From positions 558,001-622,000 of the forward strand of contig JAQGDQ010000027.1 in assembly GCA_030141605.1 (NCBI GenBank): a DNA stretch of 64,000 bases, in the 5' to 3' direction. Of the stretch, positions 15,837-58,082 are shown piece after piece (position 1 is the stretch's first letter; each line of letters starts with the position of its first letter). The notes under the pieces are model-generated. The model was not told the DNA's origin. It was given only the letters and a program-made list of their open reading frames with translations, and searched no databases. The position numbers were made by a program, and so were the translations under genes. This stretch comes from Tubiluchus corallicola. Lineage: Eukaryota; Animalia; Priapulida.

Positions 15837-16110
15837 CCGTCGTTCTTGCGTACCACTGATAAGTGGGGTTTAAAAGACTAATTTCAGGGTTCGCTTGCGC
15901 AACTTTTCATGGTCACATATGATTTTCGATGTTTTTCGAATTTGTTAGCTTTGAACAACATTATCAGTTTTGTTGTCTGTTTGTATATCATTAACATTCG
16001 TTATGCATTCCACTATGTTACGTGAAATAGTACGATAATCGTAAAAGAAAGACAAAAATTTTTACTCTAATGGTTTTAACGCGCATCCTGACGTCACGCA
16101 CTAGGAATTT
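15837..16110 (-). promoter_or_regulatory. Putative promoter and non-coding first exon of the BICRA-like gene
   Basis: Donor-like CGG|GTTAGT at 15837/15836 on the minus strand, perfect CRE palindrome TGACGTCA at 16089-16096, and locally more CpG. The 5' UTR acceptor lies at 14587. Inference only. Confidence 0.3.
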
Positions 16111-17804: not shown

Positions 17805-18643
17805 CAGGGCCGCATTAATCCATAAGCGAACTAAGCACGTGCTAAGGACACCTAGGCTTAGAGGGCACCAAGTAGGTAAGAAAAACAGTTAAAATTTTAA
17901 TGAAATATGTTAAAGACTATAAAAGCCTTTCACAGTTTAAAATGTGAAGAAGAGAGCTGCAGGAGAATGAGGCACTTTAGTTGGGTTGTTTTTCATATCA
18001 TAGCATAGCACGGTAATAGGGTCTTCACCTTTTATCGACATGTTTCCACCTGTTATGGCAAGTTGGCACAACACTGGCACACCCGTGTGCGCACTGGGTA
18101 ATTAAACAAAAGGAATCTGCACGTCCGGCAGATTAGGAGCTGACTGGGGGCTGGCATGGCTATCTTACTATTTATACCGTGTCTGTGTTTAATATTTAAT
18201 AAATGTGCAGTTTTATAAATTAAGCTTTGGTAGTTTGCCATGTCCTTTGTGGCTGTTCACCAGCGATCACGAGGCACACAGCTACCACAGCACAAGCAAC
18301 AATAAATACCAGCTATAAACACTATAATCAGCAAACATTTTTTCTACTGTGAATGCAGTGAAACTGTTCAGTCTGATATCGTATATCCACGTTTCAACGT
18401 CTTTTACTGATCGCTTGTTTGTTTGTTTTGTAATTTCAGTTTATCGTATCCAGCAAGTATCTGTAATAAAACATTAAACATTTCATACAGGTTTTCAATT
18501 TCTAGTACTTCAAGCCCTCAACGCTTTTTGGCTGGAACTAGCGTATTATACGAAGCATAATACATCAATCTTCAGCTGATGTAGGGTAGAGGGCAAGACT
18601 AACAATTTTCTAATTGGGCCCCGCACTTCCCAGTACCCATCCT
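17805..18643. mobile_element. Possible non-autonomous hAT-like element
   Basis: Starts with a CAGGGCCG terminal-like motif at 17805; degenerate ttgggccccgcac... end near 18615-18643; TSD not confirmed. Confidence 0.3.
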
Positions 18644-18689
18644 AAAGAGTCAGACCACAATAAAGTTCGCCAGTAGTGTGCAATCAAAA

Positions 18690-20000
18690 CACGTTAGGTA
18701 ACGGTTGTAAATCATGTAAACTTGCCGCCACTGTTGGTATAAAACAGGGTAGCGTGCTGTCTGTTATTCTGTTCACAATTTATAAAGGGGTACCTGAAGT
18801 AGGTTTCAGAAAAATCACCTTAAAATTATGTTACTTTATAACAATTTTACACGTATATCTTACTCGCGTTGAAAGGATTTTTTGTTTGTTTTCATTTTAA
18901 ATTTCCCGCAATACTGTTCCGACGGCGCCTTTACATGACGTCATATACGAGCTACGTAAATCAGGTCAAGAAAAGGAAATGTTAAACTATGTCCCCAAAA
19001 ACGTTCCATTCACAGCATTAATGATACTTAGCATTTTGCTTACCTGCTTGAAAGACTTATGTAACTAGAAAAGAAAATTACTAAATTTAAAATGCTTTCA
19101 CCATTCACCCTCCAGGGTGCACAGCTCACTAACCAAAAACATATTTTTAATCTTATTGACAAGATACAGTAATTTAAAAATTTTCTTAGCTAGTAACATG
19201 TGCGCCATAAAGACTCTGATTATTTTTTCAAACTTTACTCAGTGTTATCTAAACTTGTTTCAAATGACTTATCGTCAAAAAGGCTACGTCTAACGGTCAT
19301 CACTGGAAGTTAAATTTTCAAGTTTTACACAGCGTTACTGCCGACGCAAGTCCTGTGTGCAAAACGGCAGTGCGTAAAAGCTATAAAAGTTCAAGACGAA
19401 TTTTTGAGCTTTATGTAAGTGGAGGGGTTTCTTGTGCTTTAATATCTATGTAGCATATGCAAATAGTCATGATAATGTGCTTCAATATTGCGAAAACCAA
19501 AGGGATAATATTCGGAAAATATAATTTTGTCGACATGCCTGAAATGTGTAAAAAGCTAAAATGGTACAGTAGTGTTACTCGTTTAGGGCACAAGTTAACT
19601 AACAATCTCGATCAATAGCCTGATATTGCTAGATGTAAGAATGATTTTATCAAATTAGTAAATTCCATTGTATGCTTTTTCAAATCAGTTAAAAATAAAC
19701 GTGTGATCCTCAAGCTTTTTTGGTCATTCTTCTGCTCGTTCTATGGCAGCTCTATACTTGAGTTACCAGACAAGAGTGTTAAACCTCTAGAGCTATTGAT
19801 TTAAGGAAAGCTTTGCGCGGATTTTAGACACTGTACTTCATATAATTCACAAACAAGTGTGACTCATTGAATTGCTGGTGTAACTACCATTCACTGTTAT
19901 AATTGCAAAACGTATGTAAACATTTTACAGTCGTGTAAAAATTATGCAAGATCTATGTGTAACATTTTTGCTATTTCAAATTCGGGTGTAATTTTTTGTC
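18690..20000 (+). mobile_element. Interrupted LINE (L2/CR1-group) RT remnants
   Basis: GIKQGSVLSVILFTIY at about 18735-18783. After an unrelated insert of about 650 bp comes degenerate RT C-terminal sequence (...LGHKLTNNLD...KLFWSFFCSFYGS). Confidence 0.55.
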
Positions 20001-20109
20001 ATGGTACACTATTATATTTATTTTGATTTTGACATCATCTATTTCATCTTTGGTTCTTGCTATCCATGCAATATCATCAGCATATTGCAGGTCTATGGTT
20101 GTAGGGAAT

Positions 20110-20810
20110 TTCGTTTTACTAGCATAATAACAAAATTAAAAGAAATGGATCTCATACTAAATAAAGATAAAACAGAAGAGTATCACATAAAAATGAATGG
20201 AGATGATGCGTGGAGGAAATGCAGGTGCTTAGGCAGTCTTCTAGCAACAGATGAAGATGTATCAAGAGGAAAAATCCTAGCACTGGCTGCATATTCCAAA
20301 TTAACAAAACATTTTGAAAATAAGAGGATCAGTTTCGATACCTAATTAAGAATCTTTGCTGCACTTGTGGAAACTGTGTTTCTCTGAATTATGGACAATT
20401 AAAGCACAACACGAATCAGAAAGTAATGCATTTCAAAAAAGAAACTACAGGAACATTCTAGGGATAAAATGGCCAAACAAAATATCAAACCAGGATCTGT
20501 ACAATAAAGTCAAAGCAGAGGAATGGACAATTAAAATCAAAAGGAGAAGATAAAGATGGATAGGACTTGTTATACGATAACCAGATGACAGTCCATTAAA
20601 GTTAGCTTTCAAAGAAGCACTGCAGAAAGAAAAGAAACCGCAAGGAGGACAGCTGCTGACTTATATCAATTTCATCCAAAAAGACCTTATCAACACACCT
20701 TTAGATATCAAAAATGCAGAGACATGGGAGGTTGCAGGTGACAGGGCAGCATGGAGTAAAGTGATCAGCAGGGTCATGTTGAACGACGTGTGACTCCAGA
20801 GATGATGATG
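20110..20810 (+). mobile_element. RTE-clade LINE 3' fragment
   Basis: LILNKDKTE...LGSLL, ELWTI...RNILGIKWPNKISNQDLY...IKRRR*RWIGLVIR, AGDRAAW, ending in a (gat)n tail at about 20800. Confidence 0.85.
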
Positions 20811-21877
20811 TTATTGTATTTGTGCAATTAAATCGAATTGAATTTAATTGATGTTACGCCAGTAAACGTGAACGTCATTGTCACGCAGGCGCGGCACTTA
20901 AATCATACATTTTTGACGAAGCACTTTACCCGTAATAAAATGTGGAACAATACATTAGTTTATGTGAATTTTTCCCATTTCTTGCTAACATTTTGCTCGT
21001 GTAATAGTTTCAAAATAGAGTAAAACAAGACAGAATAAAAAGCCCACAAGACATTTACAATGAGTCGCGTAGAAGTTGAACAGCAATGGTAGCTGATTTA
21101 TAACCTGAATGTATCTATGTTGCTAATGTTGCAGTTGCTGTTGCTCTCTTACTGTTATTTTCGTTGTTGGCAGTGTTATTATATGCATTTTTTTTTAGCT
21201 TTGTTCTTCCTTTTTTCATTTGTGTCATTGACGCCATTAATGACAGATAAAACAAGATTATTGTAGGCCCTAATGATGATTATCATTATCAACATCATTA
21301 TCATCATCATTATCATGGTCATTGTCATCGTCATTATCTTCATCAACAATCATAAAGGCAAAAACGAAGTCTAAAATTTAATGGTACACACTATTGCATA
21401 CCATTAATTTTCTCATCATCATTTTTATTGTCATTGTTATCATTATCATCAACATTGTCGTTACCGTCCATGTCACTGTCATCACCATGATTAACGTTAT
21501 GTTTTTCCATCACTAAACTAAAGAACAAAAGTCACACATTTATAATAACACCAACTGCAACAAAAAATCAATAAAAGCAGTGTTACAAGTGATTATTCTT
21601 GTAAACTATTTACAAACAAAAATGTTTACAAACTACAAATATTTGAAAAAACCGTATATTTGTTAATTCAGTAAAGCTTAGGAGTGTTGCTAGTTTTAAT
21701 GAAATAGATTTTTTTGTGCTGTGAACTCTTCTGGACACTTAGTGAATTGGTTTACAGAGCTTTTGTGATGATGAAGTAAAAGAGATATTGCTAAATCTGC
21801 AAATCAATTAAGTGTTACATTATTTGATTTTTTGTACATGGACACAATTATAAATGTTATTTACAAATCAATATAAT

Positions 21878-22495
21878 TCTAAATCTTCAGTATTCTTGGA
21901 TTTTTCAATCTTCAGTATTATACTTATCTTTTTTCTTCGTTATCATTCACATTCATTCTATTAATATCACGAGGACCCGGGATGGTAGCTTCTTTTTTTT
22001 TTATTCGTTCCACACTTGATTGCCATAGCTGCCATATTTCCTTCGTTCCATATGTCACCGAAGTCAGCGAACACTTTCTTTGGTTTTTTCATCCTGCGGG
22101 AAGTACTAGGAGGCACTGTTTTCATCTCTTCCTCGTTCCAAACGTCTGCCATGGTTTCTAAATCTTCAGTATTATACTTATCATCGTTATCATTCATCAT
22201 TCACATTCATTCTATTAATATCACTAGGACCCGCGATGGTATCGTGTTTTTTCTGATTCGTTCCACATGTGATTGCCATAGCTGCCATATCTCCTTCGTT
22301 CCATATGTCACCATAGTTGGCGAACACATTCATCGGTTTCTTCATCCTGTGGGGAGCACTAGGAGGCACTGTTTTCATATCTTTCTCGTTCCAAACATCT
22401 GCCATGGTTTCTAAATGTTCAGTATTATACTTATCTTTTTTCATCGTTATCACTCACATTCATTCTATTAATATCACTATGACCCGGGATGGTAG
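21878..22495 (-). repeat. About 252-bp tandem repeat (2.4 copies) with coding-like acidic content
   Basis: The unit marker aatcttcagtattatacttatc recurs at about 21908, 22160 and 22413; ORFs 21967..22200 and 22190..22453 are paralogous. Confidence 0.8.
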
Positions 22496-23329
22496 GTTAG
22501 ACCTCGTAAGAAGCTAGGTTAATAGTGTTTCTAATACACCATAAGTAATTGTTTAATTTGCTCGTTACATAATCAACCAAAAATTCACAATACAGATGGG
22601 CGAAACAGAACTGTCAGCATAAGGCGTCGTAAAGTGTTGACACCCCCTGGTAATAATAATTATTTTTAGCATACAAATAAATGGTAAATATAGACACTTA
22701 ATATAGGACATCTTTTCAGGAAACCAAATGAAACACCGGTAAGAATCCGCCTTTAATATACGTAACAAATGGGAAATAATCAAATGTCCTACATTATTAA
22801 AAACAGGCGGATTTTTCATATTCTACCCCATTTACATGCGTGCTACAATCTAGTTTTCTTTCATTCATGGCATAGCTGACCTATTATGATCATTTTAGCA
22901 CACTGGTAAACCCGAGTCTTGTAACCTGGGCGGTCAGCGATAGTCTTTGTGCAATGAGTATTAAACTACAGTCAAAACATTATAATACGACTTTTCCAGT
23001 TAAAATTGTTAGATTGACTGGACAAATATTTTACTGTTAGGCTCAAGTAAATAAAAATTACAGGATTCGATGAGTCGTACCCTCATAATTATTTGGCTAT
23101 TATGCATTACCTTGTGTTTAACATTGATCGCATTGTGTTACTCCACTCAAAACCTGCATGCTGCACACTGTGACAATCACTGTGTTATAACTATGCACAC
23201 TATTCAATGGTCATACCGTCGAGAAAAGTTCCAACGAAAAAAAATGAAAAGAAATAATTTTATTTGCTGAATTTTCTTCACAAGTAACTTCATCAACATA
23301 GAAAAACGCTATATTGCAATAATTATGCG

Positions 23330-23760
23330 AACGTCCCAGTTTAGGCGCAATTTTTTCGCATCTGTAATTTCACATTGCCTTCCTGCGTGTTCCTGCGTTT
23401 GCATAATTAATAAGGTATCAAGCAGGAAAATTGAGAATGGGAGAGGTTATATTACATCCGTAGCGACGCTAAAATAGACTTACGAGCTCTCCGGATTACT
23501 CGTAACTGTACGCACGTTTCTGCAATAGTTTTCAGTTTTGTAAATCGTACTTAAATCATCAAGTGCACGTAACTTACGCATGTTTGATTTCGATCGTAAG
23601 TGTGGCACGTGAAATGCACCTAAATGGCTTACGCATGCGGAATTTAAATGCACTTAGCGATTCATATTTACGAGTGATTCTTTACCATCATTGCGCATGT
23701 GCAAATTGTTCGTACGCACAAAGCGTGTGCTCAACACGATACATGAATCACAAGGCCCAG
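23330..23760. mobile_element. Possible Harbinger-type non-autonomous element remnant
   Basis: CpG-rich internal cttacg/cgtaa motifs and a terminal ...atgaatcacaaggccc end; a similar-looking stretch lies at 17215-17500. The second terminus was not identified. Confidence 0.3.
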
Positions 23761-24689
23761 AATCTTCAAAAAGAAAGCGCATTCAGATTTAGTTAACGTT
23801 TACAAGTGGTCAGCTTAAGCGCAGGAATTACTAAATCAGCTCTACTTGAAAAACTTAGCCTCATTTTAGGATTTTCTGCAGGCTGCCAGCCGCATCGCCA
23901 AAATGAATGCGCACGTATGTTTCAACGAACGGGTGGGTCTATACAATGTAAATTTATTTCTCATTCTCTTATAGAACATCTAGGCAGGAAATAAAAATGA
24001 AAAGTAAATATAAAAAACAAAATCCTCTTCAAAACGCTTGTTCTGTATTACTATAGCATCCAAACTGCAACAACTTCAGATCCCAAAAAATTATAAAATT
24101 AATCATGACCAATTTTAAAGTACAAAGTTCTAAAACGGAGTACGACAGGACTTACAACAATGGGACAATCCTTAAGGTAAAAAATTATATAGAGAAGCGA
24201 ACGGATGACTGCTAGTATTTATATAAAATGAAATGATACTCTACGAAATGTACAGTTGAAAAACTGGTGCTTTAGAAGCACCTTTTGTAAAGTTCGCTGA
24301 GCATCATGTACGCCCAAAATCAGAGTATAAATGAAGCCCTTGTTTAAAAGCGGTTGCAGAAAACCATACAGCTCACTTCTTGAGGCTTTAATTTATCGCC
24401 AATTGTAAAATAACGAACCACACCTACGTGCTGCGTGCAATATCAACAGAGTGGCACATTTCGACTAATTTCACCAAGTCTCGTTAAAGCGAGAGTTTTT
24501 GCTTATTTTGTGACTGGTAATTCAATTACGTCTAATGATGAAATAAAAAGTCGGGCGAGCATCCTATATTTTCCCACAGCATTCAGGCTCTAAGTGCATG
24601 TCAGAAAATTAATTAAACTAATAGGTTTTAATGAGCCATTATTAATACATTGAAAGCTTGATATTCAGTCGAATCTGCGCAAGATTCCT

Positions 24690-24926
24690 TATATAAACTT
24701 GATATTGAGTAGGTCAGTCTGTGTTACGCAGTTTGATTAATAGCTTGCGATGATGATGATGCGCATCGTGGGAGTATCCTACTCATATGATTTCGACCAC
24801 AACCAGTAGGGAGCGTGATATGTTCGCAGCATCTTCAGCTTTTGCACCGGAAGAACAATGCCAAGAACGTTTCGTGATTTAGGACAACCTTGAAACAAAA
24901 TTTTACTCGTAACCGAAAAGGTAAGC
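24690..24926 (+). promoter_or_regulatory. Candidate TATA/Inr promoter and non-coding first exon, possibly of the prepropeptide gene
   Basis: TATATAAA at 24690-24697, TCAGT initiator at 24714-24718, strong donor AAG|GTAAGC at 24920/24921, clustered TAAT homeodomain cores just upstream. The link to the 32140 acceptor is inferred. Confidence 0.3.
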
Positions 24927-27900
24927 GTACAGCTCGCAATTTTGGCTATTCATTCGAAAGTGATTATTTTGTACGGAAGATGAACACAAAATACTGAAAA
25001 AAGAAATTTTGAGAAACATAATTTATTAATCTACTACTTAATTTACTACTTATTTACTACTGCATTGTTTATAGACTTGATCCAATATTAATAAAAATGT
25101 AAATGGGATGAACTTTAGATTAGCTGTCATAACCGGAAGTTTGCTGGTTCAAATTCAGACTACTGCTAGTAGTAGTACTACTAGAACTTCAAGAACTACT
25201 AGAACAATTTCAATATGTATATATTAAAATATATTCCAACTTTTCTTCACATCCTGTTTTTCAAGTTTGGTTTTATAATTCATTTATTTGTAGGCTTGTA
25301 CCATCAACATAATCTAGTTACGACAACAGTAACGCGGCTTCTATTGAAAGATGTGTAGGAATGCTTGTAGTATAGACATGTAGTATTTAGGCCTACAATT
25401 ACGAGAAGTTCTCATCGTTTTCCATTCGCAAAAACACCAGGACAACACTTCAAAAAATAATAATAATGCGTTTGGAAAGTTCAGGATACGTGTACGTGTT
25501 ATTAGGATGAGATGCTATGTTGAGTTAATAGCTCAAATGGTAGTGTGCAACATAGAAATCGCAAGTTTCTGGGTTGATGACCTTGCTTCTTCTCAGTTAA
25601 TTCCCTGTAGGGATATTTATTATGGTCTTTTTAATATAAATGACAGTTTTTTTGATTACGTGTAAGACCGGAACACAGTAAGAAGGGAATAATTGGAATC
25701 TTGAAGCAAGTGTCTAATAATGTGCAATATGTATGGCGTTAATCAATTTGATTTGTAGTGAAATATTTATAAATTTATCGACCTATTGTTATTACTAAAA
25801 CGTTTTTCAACATTTTTATGTATTTTGTGCAGGTGCCTTTTGTGTCTTGTAGAAACAATTTGGAACAAATCTATAGGAAAAGCTATTGATTATATATTTG
25901 CATTGTTGAACTAACAGTGCAATTTGTTTGTTATTACTACCATATTACGCCCACCCCATACAGCGGTTACCCTGAAACAAGCATATAAAGTATATTTCAC
26001 TAAAGGAAAACAACCCGGACGTTGTGGTTTTACTTATAATTACGGTTTAACTTAATAAACAACAAGCAACCCTATGTAGTTTACTAAACAATTCTAGAAT
26101 TGACTAAATCACAACTTTTACCCAGACATGTTTGATACTCCTGCAATGCGTATCACACATACAACACACATCATCACACATAAAAGTTAATGCGTTTACC
26201 ATTTCTGTTTTAGGAATTTTTAGGGATTTTTATCATTATAAACGGCTCAAGTAAAGAGTTTCACCTACATATCAGAGTCTGAGGACGACTGTTATTAATG
26301 TGAACAAATTTTAGGTGGGTACGCGATTTTAATATTTATTTATTTGCTTTATTTATTTCGTAAAAATGCAGCTCATATTTAGTTTATAGCTTATTCTAGA
26401 CACTTCAGTAAGAAGTCTAATAAAGTTTTTCACAACTAAAATTATGATTATCAACCATTTTCATCAAGTAGTTTAAAAATACACGAATGTCATGCAGTAA
26501 AATAATTTACATAATTTTAGCTGTTCAACACTATTGCAGAGTAGTTCATTATAAATTCTTCATTTAGCTTTTAAACTTTTTTAAATATGCGTTATTGTTT
26601 AAATTATTAATTAATCGCTTTATATTTTGCACGTTATATACCAGAATTTCATTCATAATTAGTGAATCTTTTAAGGATCTTTCACTTAGTGATCTTCCTA
26701 AGAATCTTCACAAGAATCCTTAGAATATCTAGTAATCACTAATGCGCTATAAGTTTATGAATATGACCTTTGAACGAGTCACAGCAAAGAGGTGGTAGCC
26801 ATTTGCTTTAATGTTCGTAATTTACCTGTGTGAGGAAACTTTACTCTACTTACACGGCGGCTTCTGCGTAATCCAGCTTTACCCACACAATGCTTCTTAG
26901 TGATGCATAAAGAAAATTTGTTATCAGCTTTTTCAAGAACATATGTAAGAGTAAGATTGCACATTCGTTTCCAAACCGTATCTAATTGATAATAAAAGTT
27001 AGAATAACCAAACGCTAAAATATACGTATACATACGTGTGTGTGCGTGTGTGTGTGAATGCACGCTTGAGTGTGTGCGTGCATGCGTGTTAGAAACTTCC
27101 AAGTATAACTTTACTGGCTGCCTCAACGACCTTGCACGTGTCTCCGACAGCTGCGTGATTATGTATTATTAATTTATGCCGCAAATGAGGTTTTGATTAC
27201 CTTGAGTAGTTAGTTAGTCCACAAGGTTCTGGGTTCGAACAGTGGTTGACTCACAAATTTTGAACGCCTCCTTCGAATAATTAACCTTCAGGATAACAGT
27301 TGGTTACGGCGCTCCAGAAAAAAACAAATATGTGGGGAGAAATATGGCGATATGTAAATGTGCTGATCAAATCATAATAAATTATGGTTGAGTGTTAAGT
27401 AATTTAGTAAGAGATTGTACCACAAAAACTGCTGTCAGTACGTGCCGTTACTTGCAGGTATAAGCAGGAACAACGCTGCATAAAATAATAATATGAAAAA
27501 CAAAGTTCCTCTGGTTGTTAGATCCTTTGAATAGCATTTTCTTTTGTCCAAACTTAACGTGAATTTCTGCATTATAACATCAAAAAACGACATAAAAGTT
27601 ATATCATATTTCTATAACCTACATTTTTCTAGCACATAACTTGGTTTTTGTATATTCCAATATACAACGGTATTCTTACTGCAATGGTTCTTATGAAACA
27701 TTTCGTACATGTAAACCGTCTGGTTTAGTCAATGTGGCTTATTGCACTTCAGTATTTAAAAATTCATTAAATTAGGCTTTAGACAAATCGTCTTCAGTGA
27801 GCAAACCGTCACAAACAAACGTTCAGCCTAGGACCGAACTGTCATGACTACGCAGTGTACGATCTTATTGGTGTTACGTTAATTATACACGCGACACTCG

Positions 27901-29786
27901 TATTTACGATTGTTACTACTAAACACTTTAGCACTTAATTCATTATTACATCAATTAATTATACAAAATCATGCAAAATACGCCTTGTTTATCATCTAAA
28001 CGGTTTTCTATTATGGTCGTGTAAGACTTATACTCGAAACACAAGAAATAATCATTTGAAAGCTTTGCTCTAAACTACAAACGACAGGAAACGGGCATAA
28101 AAATAAAATCATGAAAAAACGTGATGTACGAGTCGGATATAATTTCAGAAGACGAGCCATTATTTTCAAATCTTTAATTAAAGCTAAGTGCACATTTGTA
28201 ATTGTCCTTTAAAATTATGGCGTCGTTCGAGGAAGTGAGTGCCTAAATGTGATTCCATCTTATTCCAGTGTGTAAGAAAAACAGCTGACAGGCAGAAAAA
28301 CGAACACAGGCGTGAAAAATAAGGCAAAAAGAAAAGACACGTTTCAGTACTTCACTGTGAACTATCCTCACGTGTAAAAACACAATTTATTACTAAGTGT
28401 TATTTTTTGGATTTTGCAATATAGATAGCGCCGAGGTAGTATTACGGCCAAGTGTGGAAGTATAATGTCTAGCGATGCACAAATTATCACTAAAGCTCAA
28501 AATAATTAGACATTACAGTTACACACTTACCTGTAATCATACCTTAGCTCTATCTATATAAAAAATAAAACTCAGTGACAGTTTATGCTTTTCTCACGAA
28601 GATATATAGATATAATTCACTGTCGTGGGATCTTTTATTATCTGTATCAACTCTTATCATTGTGCATACAAACAAAGCTGAAAAACAAAAACAAAGCTGA
28701 CAGAAAATTATAATTAAAGTAGGGTCCAGCTTCCAAACGAAGTTGGCAGCAAAATTCCAAAAAAGTGCTTTGAACGTAATTTTAGTTAAGACGTTTACTG
28801 ATTTTGCAAAAAGTGAAAAAAATTATCAACCGACGTTGAAAGTCTTGCAAGTTATAATAGACGTAGGCCTACGATTTTATTTATTAGTGAGGAATTAAAT
28901 TTGATAGTCAAACTTAGAAGAAATTTTGGCCAAACACAAAATTAACAAAGGTGATAAAATGAAGTGTTAGATTTTCACGACAACTTTTGCGATATACCTG
29001 TTTACATAAAAGGTTTAATACTAGCAAAAGTTTAGCGAAAATAGTTTAGTGAACGCGTCTGGCTGTGTCAGTTTAGTTCTATAGGTCGGCGTAAATTTTC
29101 TTAAATGTCTTTCATGAATTCTCCGTCTTTACGAGTTTTGAATCTTTAGAGTGTAAACGTAATCTTGATCTATACTGAATAAGGTGAGAACTCAGGCTTG
29201 TAAAAGAGAAAAATTGTAAGAATTTAATATTCACGACACAAAAGGCTAAAACGCGTAGCATCTAACAGTTGAGCTTTTTCAAGCTTTTAGATCTACTGCC
29301 CGTGTACCCGTCCGTAACATTCATCCCTATATTAATAGCCAATTGTTCCAAGGATTGTAACCCGCTAAGCTCTCGTGTATCTTCTAATACGCGCAGGATT
29401 AGGGTAAAGCGGATTTTATAACAGGCAAAGGCTTTTTTTACATATATTACATCGTTTTACTGACTATACAATTGTTATAAATAATATATTCCACATCGAA
29501 GTTCCATTCTGTAAGAGAAATTTCGTAACGCATATAACACAGTGTAAGTTTATCAAAGTATGCAAAATGTACTAATAACATACTAAGTAATATACAATTG
29601 CAATGAATTAATCCACTGCAGACAGACAACGAACAGTCTTGCTGACTAATAATGCCTGCGAAAATAAATAATGCAATATTTCGACTCGAGCAGAGAAAAA
29701 AAAGTAAAAAAGAGCCATGATTATATTGTTAGGAACTTTAAAACACTTCATGAATTTCGCAGCAAACCGATTTCAAGTGGAGCAGC

Positions 29787-30163
29787 CAGGGGCGTATCAA
29801 CACTTTTCGACGCCCATGTATTGTGAATTTATGGTTGATAATGTAATGAGCAGATTGAGCAATTACTTGTGCTGTACTAGTTTCTACGTAGTCGTTATTA
29901 ATTACACGTATTTGCATAGCGTTTATGCTCAGGACGGCTGCGTAACTGCTTGTTGTGTAACACCTTGCCCCTGTTCGTTATGTGGCACTTATATAAAAGC
30001 TGCGTTCAGTAATTGCCGGTGTGTTATAAAATGCGCCCTTTACATAAATATGAAAGTATACACAATTTCCGAAGAGAATAAGAATTTTTTCTAAAATGTG
30101 ACGCCCTCAAACTTTGGCGCCTTAGGCTATAGCCTAATAAGCCTATTGGTTAATACGCCCCTG
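29787..30163. mobile_element. hAT-type MITE
   Basis: TIRs CAGGGGCGTATCAAC / GTTAATACGCCCCTG (14/15); 8-bp flanks ggagcagc / aaagcagc. Confidence 0.8.
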
Positions 30164-30984
30164 AAAGCAGCCTAGGTTCAACATCTTAGCTCGGGTGTAG
30201 TACTATGGTGCTGGCGAGTACGGTTTGATTTACTAGCAGATACAGGACATACGAAGAGTACATGGTTTTCGTTTTGGATATCAAGTTCTAGAATTCTCGA
30301 CCACCTTCCTGTCTCTGTTTTTAATCGTTGTGAAGGCAGTGAATGAATGAATGAATGAATGAATGAGTAAATCGTGAGCGAATGGATTTGGTAAATCGAC
30401 GAATCAATGAATGAATTGATGGACAAATGAATAAACTAATGTAGTAGAAGAAAGTAAAAGAAGTAGAAGAAAGGACTACAACCCTTTGAGAATAGTCCTA
30501 CAATACAGGCCTGACAATATTGCAAAGATTTTGTAGCAGTAAAAAGAGTTTGACGTTTTGTCCCGCGTCAAAGGAAGTAGGTGATGTTCAAAGGAAACTT
30601 CCTGCTATCATCCCATTTACTTTAAACGTATCACTTTCTGACAAGCTGTAATTGATTTACGTTCACAGCTTACAAAATGAAATGAATCCACTTTATTGCT
30701 TACTGGACGCAATCTCCTTTTAGTTCCATCATGACAAAAGATTTCTATTGTCTTTAGTCTCATGAAAGTCTAAACTAGTATTTGTTGTCTTACTGTTGTA
30801 TTGTTTGCAATCGTCGTTATTATTGTTGTTATCACAATGGTCGTTAGCATTGTCACTATCGTCATCATCGTTACCACCATCCTTCTCGTCCTCCTTTCCC
30901 CCTTTTTTGATTTTATTGTCGTTACTGTCGTAATCACATCGGCATCATCATCATCGTTATCGTCATGACTATCATTATCTATAT

Positions 30985-31199
30985 CTATGTCCATGTCCAT
31001 GTCCATGTCCATGTCTGTCTATGTCTATGTCTATGTCTATGTCTATGTCTATGTCTATGTCTATGTCTATGTCTATGTCTATGTCTATGTCTATGTCTAT
31101 GTCTATGTCTATGTCTATGTCTATGTCTATGTCTATGTCTATGTCTATGTCTATGTCTATGTCTATGTCTATGTCTATGTCTATGTCTATGTCTATGTC
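30985..31199. repeat. (CTATGT)n hexanucleotide microsatellite
   Basis: About 35 near-perfect units; source of the spurious MS/VY/CL ORFs. Confidence 0.97.
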
Positions 31200-31848
31200 A
31201 TGTGTTTGTTCATTTTAACCACTATTACACACAATTACATTACACACAAAAAACAAGATAGATTTAATCAACAGTGAAAGTCACGTTTACTAGACACAAA
31301 ATCACCTTACAAAAGAATTTTGTGGCTCGAGTATACAGAACAATTAACAATTAATTCATACAAATATTAAAAACTAGTTATCACAACAATGTTACATAAA
31401 GTAGAATTAATAACTCCTTATACAATTATATCTAGATTTTATTTAGACAATAACTGGTTTCCAGTCTGAAAGGCTTATTATCATGAAACAGTTCTTTTTT
31501 CCAATATGAAATATATTATTCCTATTTCGTTCCAATATGAAATATGTCGTTAAGCTTGCGTAATAATTTCGCTGAGTTGAACGTATTTTGGTTATGCCAT
31601 ACGTGGACGAATCCAAAAGAATCCAGTATACCACTGCTGCCCAACAATAGGTTCCATTGTTTATCATCGGAAGACATTCTTTATAGGCATAAAAAACCAC
31701 ACTTAGTTCGTTCTTTTCTAACACATGTAGCCACCAAAGGACATTGGCCTAATTGGGCTCTCATCGCGTTTTCTACCGTACGCGAGTGAACCCTAGATAC
31801 CGCCGACAAAAATTTAAGGTTAACGTTTTTGTTTAATTTTAATTTGTC

Positions 31849-31865
31849 TATCTCTCTCTGTGTCG

Positions 31866-31926
<61 letters not shown>
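31849..31926. repeat. (CT)n microsatellite
   Basis: Visible dinucleotide run about 220 bp upstream of the prepropeptide exon. Confidence 0.95.
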
Positions 31927-31930
<4 letters not shown>

Positions 31931-32146
31931 TTTCTTGCTTCCTCCAGCCATATTCTTATTTTTCTCTTCAAACATGAAACATAATTGATTGCAATAGTAA
32001 AGAGTGACACGGCAACGCAACAGCACACAGTTTGTAGGACAGTTTGCTCTTGTTATTAACATGTTTATTTCAATTTGTTTGCAATTAGGCAATTGTAATT
32101 GAATATTATAATGAAAAGATTAACGTTAGATGTTTTCCAGGGACAA

Positions 32147-33106
32147 ATGGAACACAAGCAGTTTTCTCTGTTGCCTATTCTGTTTTTGTCGATAACTGCA
32201 GTCATTAGCCTGCAACATGGTAAACCGGATGGTGTTCATAACAGTGTTCTTCGAACATATTTTAACACCAGAAATTCAGCAGAACAAGACAGCTCAAATT
32301 TAATCAGGCAACGTAAAGCCTCGTACAATCGTGGTTTTTTCAGCTGGCCAGTCTATTTCCGGATGATGCAAAGGCGCAGAAACAAGAAACCTCAACAGGA
32401 ATCAGTCTTACAAACCAGAGCGGTGGATACGGGGAGCGTGAGGTCGGCACCAAAAAGAATTAAGTTTATTCGATGGCCTCATTTGTTTTTGACCCACAGC
32501 TGGGTTCCAGGAAAACGTTCAGAATCCGAAGCCCTCGACCAACGTTTGCAAGATAGGAAAAAATTTTCCTCAAATATCGATGACAATCCGGAACAAAATG
32601 GTGTAGTATCAAGTGGAGAAAAGGAAACGCGAAATGTCCACTTCTCATCCAGTGATGGCAAATGGTACTGGCCGTTTTACTGGCCTAACTTCAAGCCTAT
32701 TAGTTGGTACAGCGCCCATAGCAGAAATCAGAAGCCAACAAAGAGTTCAAATCGATCAATGACGACAAAACAATATCAAATGAGCGTCCTAAACCACTGG
32801 CCTTTCCACGGATTTAGCAACCTCTTGGCTACAAGAAATTACAAATACGGCAAGCGAGAACTGGGCGAAGGAGAACTGGAAAACTTGATCGATCTAATGG
32901 CGTCTCGCAATCCTGTTTTACTGAGGTCAAGGAGTAAAACAGTTCAGAGGCCAATAGATGGAGAAAAAAGGTCTATCTTCTCGTATAGCTGGGGACCTAG
33001 TGGACTGTATTGGAAAAATCTTGAAAGCGCTCTTGAAGCATTAGCCAATGAGGAGCACGATGACGCTACATCTACAAAAGATATGGCGACAGATGATGCT
33101 GAATGA
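32147..33106 (+). CDS. Secreted prepropeptide (neuropeptide/hormone- or host-defence-peptide-like precursor) with five Trp/Pro-rich peptide cores, 319 aa, single coding exon
   Basis: Acceptor tgttttccag ends at 32140, 6 nt before the ATG at 32147. Hydrophobic signal peptide MEHKQFSLLPILFLSITAVIS; cleavage sites RK, RRR, KR, GKR, RKK, GKR, KR; acidic/polar spacers; uninterrupted 960-nt ORF with higher GC than its flanks; AATAAA at 33205-33210. Confidence 0.85.
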   Translation: MEHKQFSLLPILFLSITAVISLQHGKPDGVHNSVLRTYFNTRNSAEQDSSNLIRQRKASYNRGFFSWPVYFRMMQRRRNKKPQQESVLQTRAVDTGSVRSAPKRIKFIRWPHLFLTHSWVPGKRSESEALDQRLQDRKKFSSNIDDNPEQNGVVSSGEKETRNVHFSSSDGKWYWPFYWPNFKPISWYSAHSRNQKPTKSSNRSMTTKQYQMSVLNHWPFHGFSNLLATRNYKYGKRELGEGELENLIDLMASRNPVLLRSRSKTVQRPIDGEKRSIFSYSWGPSGLYWKNLESALEALANEEHDDATSTKDMATDDAE

Positions 33107-33204
33107 AAAAATGGTAACGAAAACGTTCTGTCAAGATATTTTTATGCTTAACAATTACGTGGCTGAGAAAAAATCGAGTAAAATGTTTGTTCATTACATT
33201 TACA

Positions 33205-33210
33205 AATAAA
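33205..33210 (+). terminator. Polyadenylation signal of the prepropeptide gene
   Basis: AATAAA about 100 nt after the TGA at 33104-33106. Confidence 0.5.
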
Positions 33211-33519
33211 ATTATCAGTAGACATGTTTATAGCCTATTACTGTTCCTACTGAAATAATTATTGTTTATCTAAACAAGACAATTTACTTATAAAATTTCT
33301 AATGACACAGTTTCATTTATTTCATTGTCGACTATACAAGTACGCTGAGTAGATGAGTTGCACACGCCGTACGAAAGAAACCACTTTTGCCAAGTAAATT
33401 GTCCCATTAATACACATAGACATAACAAACAAGCTATACCCAAACAGACTCTTGATAAATCCGGTTTAACAAACGTTAACTTGTTAACTTAATTTTTTAT
33501 GATAACACACAATTGATTT

Positions 33520-36849: not shown

Positions 36850-39800
36850 ATTCTAATATTATAAGGAAATAAGAAAGTACAGAATTTGTTTATCAAGATA
36901 TCTAGAGCCTGGTAATACAAAGACTAGCTAATGGTTTCAAAAGAGGCACCGCATCTGCAGGTAGGTAAAACAGGTGTTCGACATGGTTTTTAGATCTTCT
37001 TGAGAAAAGCCAACCCGCTTTCGTGAGTGATAAACGGCTAGTCTACAGTCATCACAGGAGTAATAGGGGCATCTGTTGAAATCCAAGTGTTTTTAAATGT
37101 AATCTAAATGACGGTAAGGATACACTATTACGAATATAGAGAGGAAGAACATTCCATGAATCTGCAGCAGAAACAAAAGATGAATTAGCAAATGAAGACG
37201 AATGATGATTAAAGTTTCAAAAAATCATTACCATTGCGCACTAGATACGGCGTGACATCCCTGACTCTTGATGGTAATATGTCACAAAAATAACGAGGGG
37301 CTGACTGATTGATAATGTTGTACAGAAAACATAAACGAAAATATTTAAACTGTATGGATATTGTATTAAGACCTGCTTAATAAAGTATATTAGAGGAATT
37401 AGAGGAACAATATTGCAAAGGTTATACAATTATTTAGAAAGTCGCCAGTAGAGAGTAGTAATAATTGAGGGTTCTACATCTGAATGGAAACAAATGAGGG
37501 CCGGTGTTCCTCAACGCTCCATTTTAGGACCGTTACTTTTTTAGTATTTATTAGTGACGTTACTGACAACTTGGAAAATATAGTGCACTTTGTTTGCTGA
37601 TTACGCAAGCTTACTCTGTCCAACTACCAATATGCGTTTTAGCGTTGAAAGTTTAAATCGAGATTTAGACAAAATTAAAAACTGGTGTTCTACTTGGGGA
37701 GTTACAATAAATATCCAAAAAATAAAGATTTCCATCAGTACTAAATGGCCTCATATTTGGCAATTCTGAAGTCGAAGTGGTTAATACAGTCAAACATCTA
37801 GGATTAATATTCGATTCCGAGCTTAACTGGAACTTCAATGTTAATTATGTTGAACAAATAGCGAACAAACCTACAAGACAATTGTGTAACAGTTTTTTTC
37901 AAAAAAGCATAAAAATTGGGGACTCTTTGCCCAAAGACATTAGAGAAACATATACTTCCAAAGTTTCGTTCAAAAACAAAATACTTACCCTTTGGAATCT
38001 TCCCACAAAAATATTATGTCCTCGATACAATAATGATCGGGCTAACGAAATATTTACTAATAGATGTATTACAGATTTTTCTCAGTTTAACGGTAACCTT
38101 TTTATTAGAAATTTAATTGACGACCCCAAATGTAGCTGCGGTGATTTTATATAAAGTTCCTACCATTACTTTTTCGAATGTGTAAAATATGATAGAGCTA
38201 GAACGGTATTATTAGACGACCTACTCTACCTAGAGATTGTAACACGTGAATCCTTGCAAAATTATAATCCTGTAGTATTATACAAAAACATATTCGAAAA
38301 ATTCAAAACTGGTCACCCATCTTGCTTTATTATCCATACTTTATTACAGCAGTTTATTAAATCAACTTTTCTCTTCACAATTCAATAGAATGTAATGTTA
38401 AATGATTAATCAGCCATCAACCTTGTAAATGTATTATTATTATTACTGTTGTTGTTAAAATATTGCATTTATATAGACGTGTATGTAAGTTTAATTACCA
38501 TCTGCGGATTGTAATTGAATCAAATATTTTATTGAATCGAGTGTGATAATTATTAACTGCGACGCCATTATTCTTTTATTAGCACTTCGCACTCAGCACT
38601 TGCACTGTGGAGATACATGTATCAAACGCAGTCTGTTTTGTAAATCCACTATAAATAAATAAAGTTTAAACTAAACATAAAGTATATTATCGTGACTGGA
38701 TACAGACGTTGCACCAGTACAAGTATGAGATGTATTTACTTGAATATTTTCAAGGAGTACATGGAGCCACTACTATAGCTAGATCACACAAAATGACACA
38801 GTGTTACCATATGCAATGGCTGGCAATATAATACTTTTAAATAAATGCTCACACGATGAGCGGGGTAGTATGTAAGAGAGTTGTTTCTAAATTTGCAGTT
38901 TTGATTGAGCTGCAACAACTAATTCATTAACATGATAAGCCCATTTTAGGTTTTCATAAATTTTTTGTACAACAGAAATTAATAGATTAATGGTACTATC
39001 GCGTGGCCTGAAATCAGAATTACGTTCAGTTAACAAATTGTTATTATTGTTATTGTAATTATAAAGTTGTTTAAACACATTTCTTTCTAATATTTTGGAG
39101 GTGCAGTAAAGAAAAATATTGATCGATAATTTGACATTTCCTCTCTGTTACCTTTTTGAATGCGGGACATACGTTAGCACGTTTCCACTAAGTAGGAAAA
39201 TGATCATTTTTTAAAGACATAACAAACAATTTTGTTAACGGTAAGGACAGATACTGGGAACAAGATTTTAAGACTTTTAGGTACCGTTGATTGATTACAT
39301 TAGCATTACGAAGTAAAAAAGAAACTATGTCCTCTGACAAATTAACACAAGATAATGATGTATTGGTAACTTGCTGTTACGCAGGTAAAAAGCATTTCTT
39401 GTGCCTAAAATACAGTTACTTGCAAAGAACTCATTAAATGCTAGGCACTTTAACTTTGTAGCAGGTACCATAGTCTGATTAATTCTTAATGGGAGAATAA
39501 CGATGTCTCTATTACATTTACAAAATCTTTTAATACAGTTCCCCAAAGCCCTGGGCGAATTGCGTTACGACACTGTTTATATTTTACCCAGCATCTACGC
39601 TATTCTGACAATTGTAACGCTTATAGGCCTTTTCATTAAACTTTCGCAACTTTCGAACATAACTATTCATCCACAACTTGTCCAGAGGCCGAATAGTTAC
39701 AGTTTAATTTGGGATAAAATTGTCTATGAGTTTTAATAACTGAATAGTAAACTGAGTGCATAGCTGTCAACATTTACAAGAACTATATCCCAGTCAGTAA

Positions 39801-44109: not shown

Positions 44110-47100
44110 TTACGTACCAAAATTACGATCAAATGCAGTTAGAAAGGAGTTAATTAACTGCAAATTTGCTCCGGCAAGTTGGTGTGAATATTCTTTTAAC
44201 TTTGCCAGCCTATGCTGCACACATGTTGCAGGATCGCATAACGGTAACTGAAAAGAAAAATTAGCAACAATCAATTTTGTTCCATGTCGAGTTTTGCGCG
44301 TACAGGATGGTACATAAGCTTTTGCTACGACGTACAAAAACAATGAACACTAGAGAACAATTGCATTCAAAGTTTTACGTATTGCTCAAACAATAGTGAA
44401 TCTATAATACTGTAACGTTAACGGCTGCCAAGAGGTTCGATGTTTAAATCTTGATTGACGATAGTTCCATTGTTAGAAAACGACTCCATAAACGATAAAT
44501 GAAGGAATAACTTCCCAGAATTTTTCTCAATACTGGCTGTTTTGTGGAACAGGTGCTTTAGTATAAAATGAATCTCGTTCAGCCTGCAATCTTGAAGGGG
44601 CTGATAAGAACAGTGACCTGAAAACGTTGGGATAAATTTTTCGATTGAACTGAACGGCGTTGGGATTCACTGGACATCAGCCCCGTCAAATAGACTGGAG
44701 CTACCCTGAAAGACGAATGGACGATAAGATGGTAAAAAACGTTGTTTGGAATGTAATATGAATTGTATTATAAAAGACATTTTTGATATATTCGATGTTA
44801 CATACAACACCCTGATTTTTTCAATGCTTGCTACGTAATTTTATTTTCATGATTTTCGTTTTTATTTCATTTCTTAATTATTTTACCAATCTAAACCTTG
44901 TGCATGTTTTAGCACCTGTATGTTTATTTTAATTTTATTATTACTTCATTATACTTTCTGGTATTCGTGTACTGAAGTAAAAATAAAATTGTAATTTCTA
45001 AAAAATATTCAAAGATAAGCTCGTCGGACATTTGCAAGATGTGTTGTACGAACTAGAGTTCTTGGTGTCACTGCTTCAATCATGCCCCTCTAGACTACAG
45101 GCTGTGTGATATGTAAGAGGCTTCCACATTTAATATTGAAAGCATGACAGATTTACTATTGTTTGACGTAATAATTGTTCAGTCCTTTTTGTACCCCCTA
45201 GCATAAGATTATGTACAACTTTGTATATCAAGTGTAGTTAATTTTCTGTTCCTTCTTGTGCAGCTCTGTAAAACGTACAGTTAATGCATGCTGGAAATGT
45301 TATCGAATTTTGCAAGAATACCTCGACACATAAAATTTCCAGGCGCATAAATTACACTAGCAATACAGGCACTGGTAAATGTTGGTTGTTGTGTATGCTG
45401 CCAAATGCAAACAATGTTATTAACATGGTGGATTATTTGACAATGTGCTTTACTGTAAAATGAAGCCCCACTAAACGGCAACTCATAGTCTCATACCAAT
45501 GACTATGGAAAATGAAGCCATAATTTTCCATCTGTCTTTAACCTACATAATTCACTTAGAGTGATGGGCCACAAAAATATCAATTCGCAAATAAGGCTTT
45601 GAAGCTCCCGACTTACTGTATTAACGATAACGACTAAAGATATTTATATACGAGATTAATACGATGGAAGACAGTGGACTGCATAGGAGGTACACGTGTC
45701 GCGATCCCCCAGTAATTGCAATTCTAAGTAAACGCGATCCCCCAGTAATTACAATTCTAAGTAAACTAACATGCTAACCTTTAACATAGGGTTTCCTGAA
45801 TCTCTAATTATAGGTTAACTTTTACACTTATCAGGAGTTCAGTTTCTCTACATTTCAACTTATCTTCGTACAGCTTTCACATATTACGTGCTTAAGTAAT
45901 ATGACTAGTAGCTGATTAGATTAGATTATTTCTTTTTTCGGCAATTAGGTCATAAATGACGCAGCAAGACACGGGATCACAAAAATATGATTATAAAAAA
46001 CATCTAAAATCAAAATTTTTGAAATATGTTGCAAAGGTGGCCAGGTCATTAGCTAACAGATCAGAAAGAGTATAAAGGACTAGACTTTTTGGTTTCTTTT
46101 ATCCGAGGTCTAATTGAAAACACAGTAGTTGAGCACAATCTGTACAGGAAATGAACCCTGATCCATGGCTATAAATATAAAATATAAAGATTTGCTACCT
46201 TCTCTTGTCAGACTATCGTGCCTGATAAGTAAAATAAACTGGATGTTTTCTTTTGAAATCTAGCGATTAACTGGACTGAAAGAATTTTAATTCAAATCCG
46301 CGAGCATAACCGTGTTTATCAGTTGACCATGCCTAGTTTAATGTTGTCGAAGTGCGGTAAAAGCATGTGTTACTCATGTCAGAAACTGTAGACTTTTGTG
46401 CTCATGTGTGACTGATCAGTGTGCTCGGTGTTCGTGATTAATTATCACTAAACTATGCCTTGTCCAGTGCAGTTTACTCGTGTAATTAAGTAGTTTGTCC
46501 ATTTTCACATTTTTGTTCCTATCTCGGGACATTAAACAACCATAGCCTTTTTAACCTTACCATTGCCTGAGCCCTTATACAAGGTGTCTACCTAGCAAGT
46601 TTCGTGATTCTAAGTGCTATTATTACAATTTTATAGTTTTTCAATATTATGACATAAACTCGATATCTAATCAAAGTTGAAATCAGCGTATGAGTTCACC
46701 TTAGGATTAATAAAAACAGAATATGTAAAAGTTCACTGTCATATAAGCAGTACAAAAGTATAGTAGGCACTTACCGTTTTGTACAGCTGATACAACGCTT
46801 GGAAAGCCGGATAGTGGTTTTTACGTCGCACGAAATTTTTTGCGCATCCATGCAAAATACCAAGCCCTTTTTCCATTGCTGACTTACAAACGGAATTAGT
46901 GTCAACTCTGTCTATTATCATATCCCATTCGCATGGCAAAACCATGAACTTTTCTGAAAAAAAGCTCAAGTGAGTTTTCTTTATAGTCTTTGAATGCATA
47001 AACATTTTCTATATTTTCTAGATTCGAAACTAAATAACTTTATCTGTTATCCTTCTCCTACTAATATGTAGAAATTTGATATTGAAAACTTAAAAATTAT

Positions 47101-50100
47101 ATGACTTCTTGCACGCAGTTCTTAAATCCGATCTAAATTAACATGGCGTATATCATACTTGTCATTTTCGATATTTATATATTTGAACTGCTATTCTTAT
47201 GCCAAAAATCAAAGACAAAACTTTCGATGCCCAAGATTCAAGATAGATGAGGCAAATTGATGATGGAATCTTGTCTTTGATTTTTGGCATAAAAATGGCA
47301 GTTAAACCTGAAGTTTAACTTCAGAACAGGTGCAAAACATTGTGAAAATTCCCAATTTTGTGAAAATATCTGAAACGAGATGATCGAGACGACAAAATTA
47401 ATTATGATCTTGGTGGACAGTTAAAGTACGATGTTTGCAATAATATCTTCGATTTTTAAAATTAAGATTAATGTTCCAATGAAACAATTAAAAATAAGAT
47501 TAATAATTTAATAATCCTATCGTCATACACTATCGTCGTTGTTGTCGTAGTCTATCATCATATCATCAACGTCATCGTCGTCATCATCATCATTATCTCA
47601 AAGTCATCATTATCTGCTAATTAATCATTTGATTATTTTTTACAGCTGCTATACAGGCACAATTGATTTCTCTGCCGAAGCATTTCGTGACAGCACAAGT
47701 CTAATGTATGAGTTACATACCAGGGTGGAGATAACCGTAAGCATTTAAAATGCATTGATCGCCAGCCACGGTTAGATTATGGTACTTTTCCAGAAGTACA
47801 ACTGCCTCTTCAGTAAAACTCGTTGCTCGAAGTTTGTTAAGATCCATGAGTAACATACCAGCGTTAAAACCTTAAAGCGAGACAACTGTATTCTTACCAA
47901 AATCAATCTTTAGCAAAAACAAATTGATGTAATGAATGATAAAAATTCTGTAAATAAAGCAATTAAATTATAAGTTTAAGGTTTTCTAGTGCCCTTAGTC
48001 TCAGGATGGTAATACCTGCCACTCTGCCAGGAGTTTTAACTGTCATAGATGGACCTCATCTGTTAGGTTGTAAATTGTCAAAAAAGAATTAAAACTGGTT
48101 TTACACTTTCACATACTATACTCTTAGGTATTTTTACATTACTATGACAAGGTCTAGAAGAAAATGTTTGTCAACTACGTATATAATATTTTTATATTAC
48201 AGCCGATTATAGTACTTCAAATCCATTTAACTATAGTTCATACCATAGTCGTTAAATAGCAGTTTCAGTTTATTTTCTTGAGCGTATCTTCCAGGTTTTT
48301 CGTCATTTGTCATCACAACGCCTAGCATCTGCTTATTGGTCATGTAAGCAAAGTAGTTCCACAGTTGTTCCAGGGGTCTTGTTACAATCATGTCAGAATC
48401 CAAGTACAATATTCTATCGAGGTCTTTTAAAATCTCCTGTAATTCGTACCAATTTTATGACAAGGCGATATATGTGGTGATTAGAAGTTTATTACTGCTT
48501 AGCTAGTTTTTCTACTTAACTAATTTAATTAGTACTAAACTAGTTTCACAAATTAGGAGTGACAAGTCTAAAATTGGCGGTAAAGTATTTCGTTGTGGTT
48601 TCTTTGAGCCTTTCACAAAAACTTATTTTCGATTTTATATTGCAGTAATGACTTTAGCTTATAGTTTACATTCTGTTCTCAATGATCTATATATAATATA
48701 TTATACACAGCTAATGTAATGTGGGGGCGGATCTCACAAGCATGAGCAATCAGCGCACTTATTGTTTGGTAGCGTGTCATACTACTCAGCTATAATACGA
48801 CACAATGCTTGAACACAAAACGTAAAACTAATTTATGATAGGCCAACACTTTAATACTCATTCAATAAACACGAGTTGCCATTCAAAATTCAGTATTCAA
48901 AATTTACAGATAGGAAATTCTCTTGGTCGCAAAAAAGGACAATCTAATAGTTCATGAAGTTTGGTTAATAATAAGTCCATGAAATAAAGCTCCATCCACA
49001 CGAGGCTGTAATGTAGGCTATCAGCACCCTCAGCTGAGTTTTACTTTACCACCAGACCCGTGTCAATCAAAACGAGTATTGTTTAACAAAAGGAAGAAAC
49101 AGGCAGTCGCCTTGTAGTCAATTAAAAGAAACAAGGAATTGTCACTTGCAGTACCAGCATCAATGAAAGAAATCGTCGGCCATACTTATCCATACGACGA
49201 CGAAGGTGGTGGATCTATAAACCGGCTGTTCCATCATAGCTAAGCTGTGGCGTCATAAGGGAGTCGCTCCAGGAAGTGTCCTGCGTTGGTAGACCTGCAG
49301 TTTGGTTATCACGTCAAATGTCACAGTTACTTCGATGTGAACAAATGGTTATACAGAACTGAGCTTGATACTAGAACTGCCCACATTAATAGTTACTAAC
49401 ACGTAGTTAGAACTTTCACCAAGCTCAAGTTGATCGAGTTGTGCCAAGAAGCAAAACAAAAGTTTAAAAAAACTGTTCAGTATTATTTCTGCTAGCAGGT
49501 CACTCTTGCTACGAGCCAAGCCGTACTAAAACACACCTGAGCGAATGACCTCCAAAACACGTTGTCGATTAGCCTGGCTTCAATAATACTATAGCAGGAC
49601 GACCTGTATTCGCACAGCTGTGCGACGAGTTTATCCTTGTTTTGACTTATCCACATAACTAAAGTGTAACAGCAGGTTTTTACAAAGAATAGCTATAAAC
49701 AACAATTTTATACTGTTCAAACTAAACTACTTGTACTCCCGTAAAGTTTACATTAGCCTAAAAATGTCTCATGTTGCGACAGTGTTAAACGGGGTAATAA
49801 TAATAAAATATAATTAGAAATACGTAGATATATGCTAAGCTTGTCCTTACAGCTAAGTGGTCACAATGTGCACTTGATCACCAAAGCTTAGCAACGCTTA
49901 GTCTGATCAGTGAACAGGTGAGTCGGTAAACTGGTCAGGCAACGGTGGGCCGTTTTGGAAGACAGGGCTGTTCCACCTGATAATGCCATCAGCAGCTATT
50001 TATCTACGAGGGACAATGTGTTTATCAGTATCGTGTCTAAGAGGATTCATTGTTCTTGACAATAATACAGATCCAGTTCCTTTACCACATAAGGTTGGTA

Positions 50101-57789: not shown

Positions 57790-57875
<86 letters not shown>

Positions 57876-57876
57876 G

Positions 57877-57950
<74 letters not shown>

Positions 57951-58044
57951 GAAGGAAGGAAGGAAGGAAGGAAGGAAGGAAGGAAGGAAGGAAGGAAGTA
58001 AGGAAGTAAGTAAGTACGTAAGTAAGTAAGTAAGTAAGTAACTA

Positions 58045-58082
<38 letters not shown>

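Follow-up and report, generated by a model that had tools for sequence, protein, structure and literature searches.

A probable neuropeptide-type precursor with several distinct conserved aromatic peptides in a 64-kb stretch of animal DNA

The window, by which we mean the whole 64-kb stretch of DNA that was analysed, is animal DNA of about 35% GC in which a single-exon gene at 32147-33106 (+), the subject of this report, lies between a BICRA/GLTSCR1-like gene on one side and two tandem GT8 genes on the other. The features that surround it are the following.

112-14560, minus strand: BICRA/GLTSCR1-like gene, start codon near 14,560, with PF15249 in exons at 5487-5898
8719-10581, plus strand: three frames of a hAT/Spin-type transposase, lying within an intron of BICRA, with zf-C2H2_12 and Dimer_Tnp_hAT matches
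2254-3282 (minus strand), 37584-38151 (plus strand) and about 19990-20800 (plus strand): decayed LINE reverse-transcriptase remnants, the first two with RVT_1 matches and the third recognised by eye only
46700-51800 and 53500-60800, minus strand: tandem pair of GT8 (glucoside xylosyltransferase-like) genes, both strongly diverged, identified with Pfam

The BICRA-like gene has two very large low-complexity exons, and a 27-bp unit is repeated seven times in frame at 12249-12436. A search with the BICRA-domain exon gave no scored match, and one with a GT8 exon gave no Atlas match. In the second GT8 copy, at about 54303 (-), a frame-continuing exon is preceded by GG where the other copy has AG, which indicates that this acceptor is either broken or non-canonical. 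At 56270-56400 (-) lies a tRNA-like short interspersed element that we take to resemble MetaSINE-type repeats; it yielded nothing in Rfam or ARAGORN. The CpG observed/expected ratio is 0.60 over the BICRA region (1-16000), 0.98 in the gap beyond it (16000-32000) and 0.84 in the precursor gene, a contrast that we take to be the pattern of invertebrate gene-body methylation; it suggests methylation of the housekeeping BICRA gene only. Among frames at least 55 codons long, Pfam was run on 115 of 127 on the GT8 side and on 104 of 143 on the other, the remainder being mostly overlapping, antisense or repeat frames, and within the 104 frames the gap at 16-32 kb produced only two hits, both below cutoff. 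A MIF4G match at 18901-19065 was rejected as chance (20 bits against a cutoff of 30.8). An earlier note on this DNA had pointed to about 16 kb without a coding gene upstream of the precursor as typical of regulated signalling genes; the distance is roughly right, but it adds no evidence for a signalling gene.

The precursor itself is encoded by one stop-free ORF of 319 aa (P0001), which sits within a 335-codon stop-to-stop frame, while the longest stop-free frames around it reach 141 codons in the 16 kb before and 169 codons in the 13 kb after. A contig of run X2, which carries the window's own DNA across the gene and may be where the window comes from, spans 31951-33500 with one difference. 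The elements of the gene and its predicted product are laid out below.

32120-32140, plus strand: sequence resembling a splice acceptor, its final CAG six bases upstream of the ATG
32147-33106, plus strand: coding sequence of the precursor P0001, a single coding exon, without Cys
32147-32209, plus strand: predicted signal peptide, residues 1-21, with the cleavage site placed by the -3/-1 rule
32312-32380, plus strand: cassette A, consisting of RK, a predicted 18-residue free-acid peptide (32318-32371) and RRR
32453-32518, plus strand: cassette B, consisting of KR, a predicted 17-residue peptide (32459-32509) ending in W-x-P, and a G-K-R amidation signal
32621-32857, plus strand: cassette C+D, consisting of a K-x-x-R site, a predicted 72-residue peptide and G-K-R
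32966-33013, plus strand: cassette E, consisting of KR and then a predicted peptide with an aromatic residue at position 3, Ser at 4, Trp at 7 and Pro at 9, its C-terminal end uncertain
33107-33264, plus strand: likely 3' UTR, the 692-base contig of run X1 ending at 33264

Because an acceptor-like CAG lies so close to the ATG, a 5' non-coding exon likely precedes the coding exon and, given such an exon, the in-frame ATG at 32111 would be intronic. At the other end, an AATAAA at 33205 falls within the candidate 3' UTR, and run X1 lacks it. Rfam and tRNA scans were empty. Neither Pfam nor PDB sequences matched a domain in P0001, the four PDB sequence matches (E 0.3-0.4) being unrelated proteins, and an AlphaFold model built with three sequences was uninformative (mean pLDDT 34.7).

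The earlier note had marked five aromatic cores in this protein, and all five translate as claimed, with the flanking residues it gave; the claim that every Trp lies inside them also stands (10 of 10). Aromatic residues occupy 30 of the 92 core positions against 4 of 205 in the spacers, a difference that is partly circular because the cores were drawn round aromatics, and acidic residues are confined to the spacers (0 of 92 against 32 of 205). GKR occurs twice in P0001, a count reached by 365 of 100,000 shuffles.

Searching 5.8 billion clusters with a word index gave one relative of this protein, P0002, which is 79-80% identical, and an unindexed HMMER search over 1.84 billion representatives, which gave two relatives in all, found P0003 at about 34% identity (E 6e-27). 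P0002 and P0003 are each known from a single assembly record. A profile of the three proteins retrieved no further relatives, none of 204 pattern matches in metagenome contigs was confirmed as one, and there is no paralogue of the precursor within the 64-kb window. The 692-base contig of run X1 covers 32585-33264 and differs from both the window and P0002, yet it has the one-codon insertion of P0002, and so by its sequence it is a third relative of the precursor gene. In P0003, the extension before the second Met (residues 1-26) reads like a translated acceptor; the called start of this protein probably runs into an intron, and the second Met is probably the true start. The C-terminal part of P0003 (residues 290-419) is about 100 residues longer than that of the window protein and carries four extra dibasic sites with no counterpart here.

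The sole hydrophobic stretch of P0001 is N-terminal (Kyte-Doolittle 13-residue maximum of 2.65 at residue 8), and hydropathy gives one such N-terminal stretch in each of the three proteins when P0003 is read from its second Met, in agreement with the signal peptide predicted by the earlier note. Beyond this region, core residues match P0002 at 88 of 92 positions against 146 of 205 in the spacers (Fisher p = 4e-7), and they match P0003 at 47 of 92 against 44 of 205 (Fisher p = 7e-7). When cassettes A, B, C and D are compared one by one with P0003, no shuffle out of 5000 scores as high as any of them, and their order is unchanged. P0003 also keeps the R[KR] and RR sites and the two G-K-R, which stand at matching places in all three proteins, and none of the six spacers is significant (203-1370 of 2000 shuffles). 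The conservation check that the earlier note had proposed, cores and cleavage sites holding while spacers drift, thus comes out positive for cores 1-4 and the cleavage sites (0 of 5000 shuffles for each core) at only 34% overall identity. The run X1 contig adds a comparison at the level of codons: in a test that took 28 of the 39 differences in its coding piece, those listed, all five codon changes in cores are silent as against 7 of 21 in spacers, where 14 of 21 change the residue (p = 0.012). Because cores and cleavage sites are kept while spacers drift, we conclude from these comparisons that the prohormone-type gene is genuine and that purifying selection acts on it; the same criterion of conserved peptides set against drifting spacers is used in PMC8557429 (in the part consulted).

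The individual cassettes differ in how they are bounded and how well they are kept. Cassette A is identical to P0002 at 18 of 18 residues and to P0003 at 11 of 18, with none of 5000 shuffles as good against the latter. Cassette B ends in W-x-P-G-K-R in all three proteins and is likewise matched against P0003 by none of 5000 shuffles. Cassette C+D consists of two conserved aromatic blocks, at 32648-32698 and 32774-32830, each with none of 5000 shuffles as good against P0003, joined by a Ser/Thr/Lys-rich linker. The K-x-x-R site that precedes C in P0001 is KR in P0003, and monobasic cleavage sites like that before C are reported in PMC8557429 (in part). In P0001 neither flank of core 3 carries a dibasic site, and since all three proteins run from C into D without one, cores 3 and 4 are likely one amidated peptide of 72 residues in P0001 and 65 in P0003, predicted to end in Tyr-amide in P0001 and P0002 and in Leu-amide in P0003; a possible monobasic cut at Arg203 of P0001 falls at a site that P0003 does not keep. 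Cassette E is identical to P0002 at 14 of 14 residues, and against P0003 it retains E-K-R-x-x-F-S-Y, a match equalled by 12 of 5000 shuffles of the P0003 tail and by 301 of 5000 of the whole protein.

These boundaries change the set of products expected from the gene. Three free-acid peptides had been proposed, but only core 1 is flanked on both sides by conserved basic sites, no dibasic site divides C from D, and E lacks a conserved C-terminal basic site. The proposal of two amidated peptides holds in that there are two conserved G-K-R signals, with B and C+D likely amidated; its further suggestion that one of them is pyroglutamylated does not, as Gln209 has only one Lys before it and no counterpart in P0003. 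A recurring aromatic-x-W-P motif had also been taken as the shared signature of the family. The WP dipeptide does occur five times in P0001, a count that 2 of 100,000 shuffles reach, but only three strict copies of the motif exist, one of them in core 1 and the others in core 3; core 5 carries WGP rather than aromatic-x-W-P, and WP is missing from cores 2 and 5 (B and E) of P0003. Nor do the cores resemble one another, with none of the ten core pairs surviving multiple testing (the best reached by 78 and 123 of 3000 shuffles), and a multi-copy (paracopy) family built on one motif was rejected on this similarity and on the missing WP. The cores are predicted to give different peptides and not variants of a single WP motif, in a precursor that holds one copy of each.

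We consider it probable that this precursor is secreted and cut into about four distinct aromatic peptides free of acidic residues (A, B, C+D and E), and that these act as neuropeptides or hormones. It would enter the regulated secretory pathway, where prohormone convertases would cut at the basic sites to release the four peptides, with their exact ends as predicted here, and carboxypeptidase trimming would be followed by PAM amidation of B and C+D at G-K-R. Cutting at KR/RR by PC1/3- and PC2-type enzymes, carboxypeptidase trimming and PAM amidation at G-K-R are all established steps. Expression would presumably be neuronal or endocrine, and the peptides, co-released as distinct products and not as repeats of one motif, would act on receptors that are most likely G-protein-coupled. 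The top matches in the ESM Atlas are all peptide precursors (0.90, 0.89 and 0.89), a weak result at a recognition of 1366, below 2300. Several observations count against this interpretation: the predicted C+D peptide, at 65-72 residues, is longer than typical neuropeptides (2-40 residues; PMC8557429, in part), only three relatives of the precursor were found, cassette E is weakly conserved in P0003, and cationic aromatic cores also fit host-defence peptides.

According to a host-defence reading, which we regard as quite unlikely, the precursor would release cationic Trp/Phe/Pro-rich peptides that are inert until cut from the acidic spacers and that then bind or disrupt microbial membranes. A cationic peptide joined to an acidic pro-region is a common antimicrobial layout, and here the cores contain no acidic residue among 92 and 30 aromatic ones while the spacers carry all 32 acidic residues. 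The net charges, +2 for A, +2 for B, +8 and +6 for C+D and 0 for E, agree with such a role for C+D in particular and not for the neutral E. The hydrophobic moments are moderate (0.1-0.8), and no antimicrobial family was found in Pfam (E up to 10) or among PDB sequences. Antimicrobial peptide genes usually change fast and duplicate, whereas this one has near-invariant cores despite an overall identity of 34% and no paralogue in the window. We hold as highly unlikely a different, non-neural role in which the gene encodes a pheromone of gametes or sex glands, or peptides that are modified (hydroxylated, brominated) or that self-assemble into adhesive or cuticle material. The high Trp/Tyr/His content, the long linker-containing peptide and the lack of any matched neuropeptide family would suit that role, but position-specific conservation of distinct, non-repetitive cores together with amidation signals suits receptor ligands better than bulk material, and reproductive peptides usually change fast, which counts against a pheromone.

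Cassettes B and E bear on a more specific alternative, namely that the precursor is a strongly diverged gene of the GnRH/corazonin/AKH superfamily whose duplicated cassettes have drifted apart and whose product or products act on GnRH- or corazonin-type receptors; we think this unlikely. The superfamily is defined by pyroglutamate, an amide, an aromatic residue at position 3, Ser/Thr at 4 and Trp/Tyr at 7 (PMC5592718, in part). In P0001 and P0002, the residues that follow the KR of cassette E include Phe3, Ser4 and Trp7 at these same positions, plus Pro9, a register reached by 43 of 4000 whole-protein shuffles without Pro9 and by 1 with it (703 and 66 of 20,000 core-only shuffles). Cassette E of P0003 has neither Trp7 nor Pro9 but carries His2, Phe3 and Ser4 in that register (18 of 4000 whole shuffles). 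The W-x-P-G-K-R end of cassette B, present in 3 of 3 proteins and in 410 of 20,000 core-only shuffles, is like that of mollusc and annelid corazonin-type precursors (PMC8557429, part of the supplement). These motif tests for GnRH echoes were, however, all chosen post hoc (p about 0.003-0.035). The only Pfam match of any kind is to AKH (E 0.055), but its 14.4 bits fall short of the cutoff of 22.9, and neither P0002 nor P0003 gives such a match.

The architecture of the gene also counts against membership of that superfamily. In none of the three proteins do an N-terminal Gln and a C-terminal amide fall on one peptide, the best-conserved blocks (A, C and D) do not fit the superfamily rule, and the mature part has no Cys, unlike corazonin-type precursors with their Cys tail (PMC8557429, part of the supplement). 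There is no coding intron here, whereas one is reported as conserved in deuterostome genes (PMC4923880, in part). The first cassette begins at residue 58, so no peptide adjoins the signal peptide; the multi-copy GnRH genes of ascidians are a partial exception to the usual layout of the superfamily. Ascidian GnRH precursors are indeed multi-copy (PMC5592718, in part), and the multi-peptide layout seen here is similar, but E bears no amide and three further, unrelated blocks are conserved. Descent would mean that a superfamily gene multiplied its cassette, that the copies diverged into five conserved units with the hallmarks split between them (an amidated W-x-P end in B, an unblocked decapeptide register in E), and that a two-block amidated peptide of some 70 residues was added, a course of events that we regard as improbable. 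The precursor is not assigned as a member of the GnRH/corazonin/AKH superfamily, and its descent from that superfamily is doubtful. If the link were true, the gene would capture an ancient reproductive hormone in the course of giving rise to new neuropeptide families.

Like the earlier note, which recognised no family, we found no match to a described one in Pfam, in PDB sequences or in the HMMER search of 1.84 billion representatives, and full-text searches of the literature show no such precursor. Six core motifs are absent from the parts searched of the supplements of PMC8557429, PMC6425005, PMC3890597, PMC5627052, PMC6188537, PMC10508912 and PMC11087051 (PMC6425005, PMC3890597 and PMC11087051 in part), a search that returned chance, unrelated matches to one five-letter motif only, left out tunicate, bryozoan and ctenophore lists and misses text in figures or broken lines. 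NKY, RFamide/RYamide, MIP, tachykinin, allatostatin A and PRXamide were rejected as candidates, their C-terminal motifs before a Gly-basic site having no regex match in any of the three proteins. A possible resemblance of block D to the tunicate peptide clavanin was dropped for want of Pfam support.

In architecture, the precursor resembles arthropod NPLP1 and prohormone-2-like proteins, represented by ESM Atlas clusters whose language-model features score 0.89-0.90. Both give several different peptides from one precursor, but they share no sequence similarity with P0001 in the HMMER search of 1.84 billion representatives, so the likeness is one of architecture only. The lophotrochozoan peptide NKY is, like C+D with its predicted Tyr-amide in P0001 and P0002, a long amidated peptide, but it has up to 43 residues and an RY/RFamide end (PMC8557429, in part), whereas none of the three proteins has R[FY]-G-dibasic and P0003 would end in Leu-amide. 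A further parallel is offered by lineage-restricted proneuropeptides of bilaterians, among them nemertean WWS, DMF, AGEamide and GGRWamide and phoronid LKFL (PMC8557429, in part) and NTLP, LF and YFV/L of Ciona (PMC6475428, in part), which have in common with the present gene a signal peptide, basic sites, conserved peptides among drifting spacers and a narrow lineage. No sequence shared with the nemertean and phoronid precursors was found in the supplement of PMC8557429; in the present precursor, moreover, the cassettes differ from each other, one has 65-72 residues, and the peptides are predictions from DNA sequence.

Collectively, these comparisons indicate that the precursor likely founds a new lineage-restricted neuropeptide-type family, for which a prior description is possible. 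Lineage-specific precursors are common (PMC8557429 and PMC6475428, both in part) and are found regularly, and the receptors of lineage-specific peptides often belong to orphan clades unrelated to one another (PMC6475428, in part); what stands out here is that each predicted peptide is present in one copy, that one of them is long and built of two blocks, and that there are echoes of GnRH. The analysis provides a short, selection-backed list of candidate ligands, A, B-amide, C+D-amide and E, of an invertebrate lineage for peptidomics and receptor screens, and, should the GnRH link prove true, the gene would illustrate the origin of new peptide families from existing ones.
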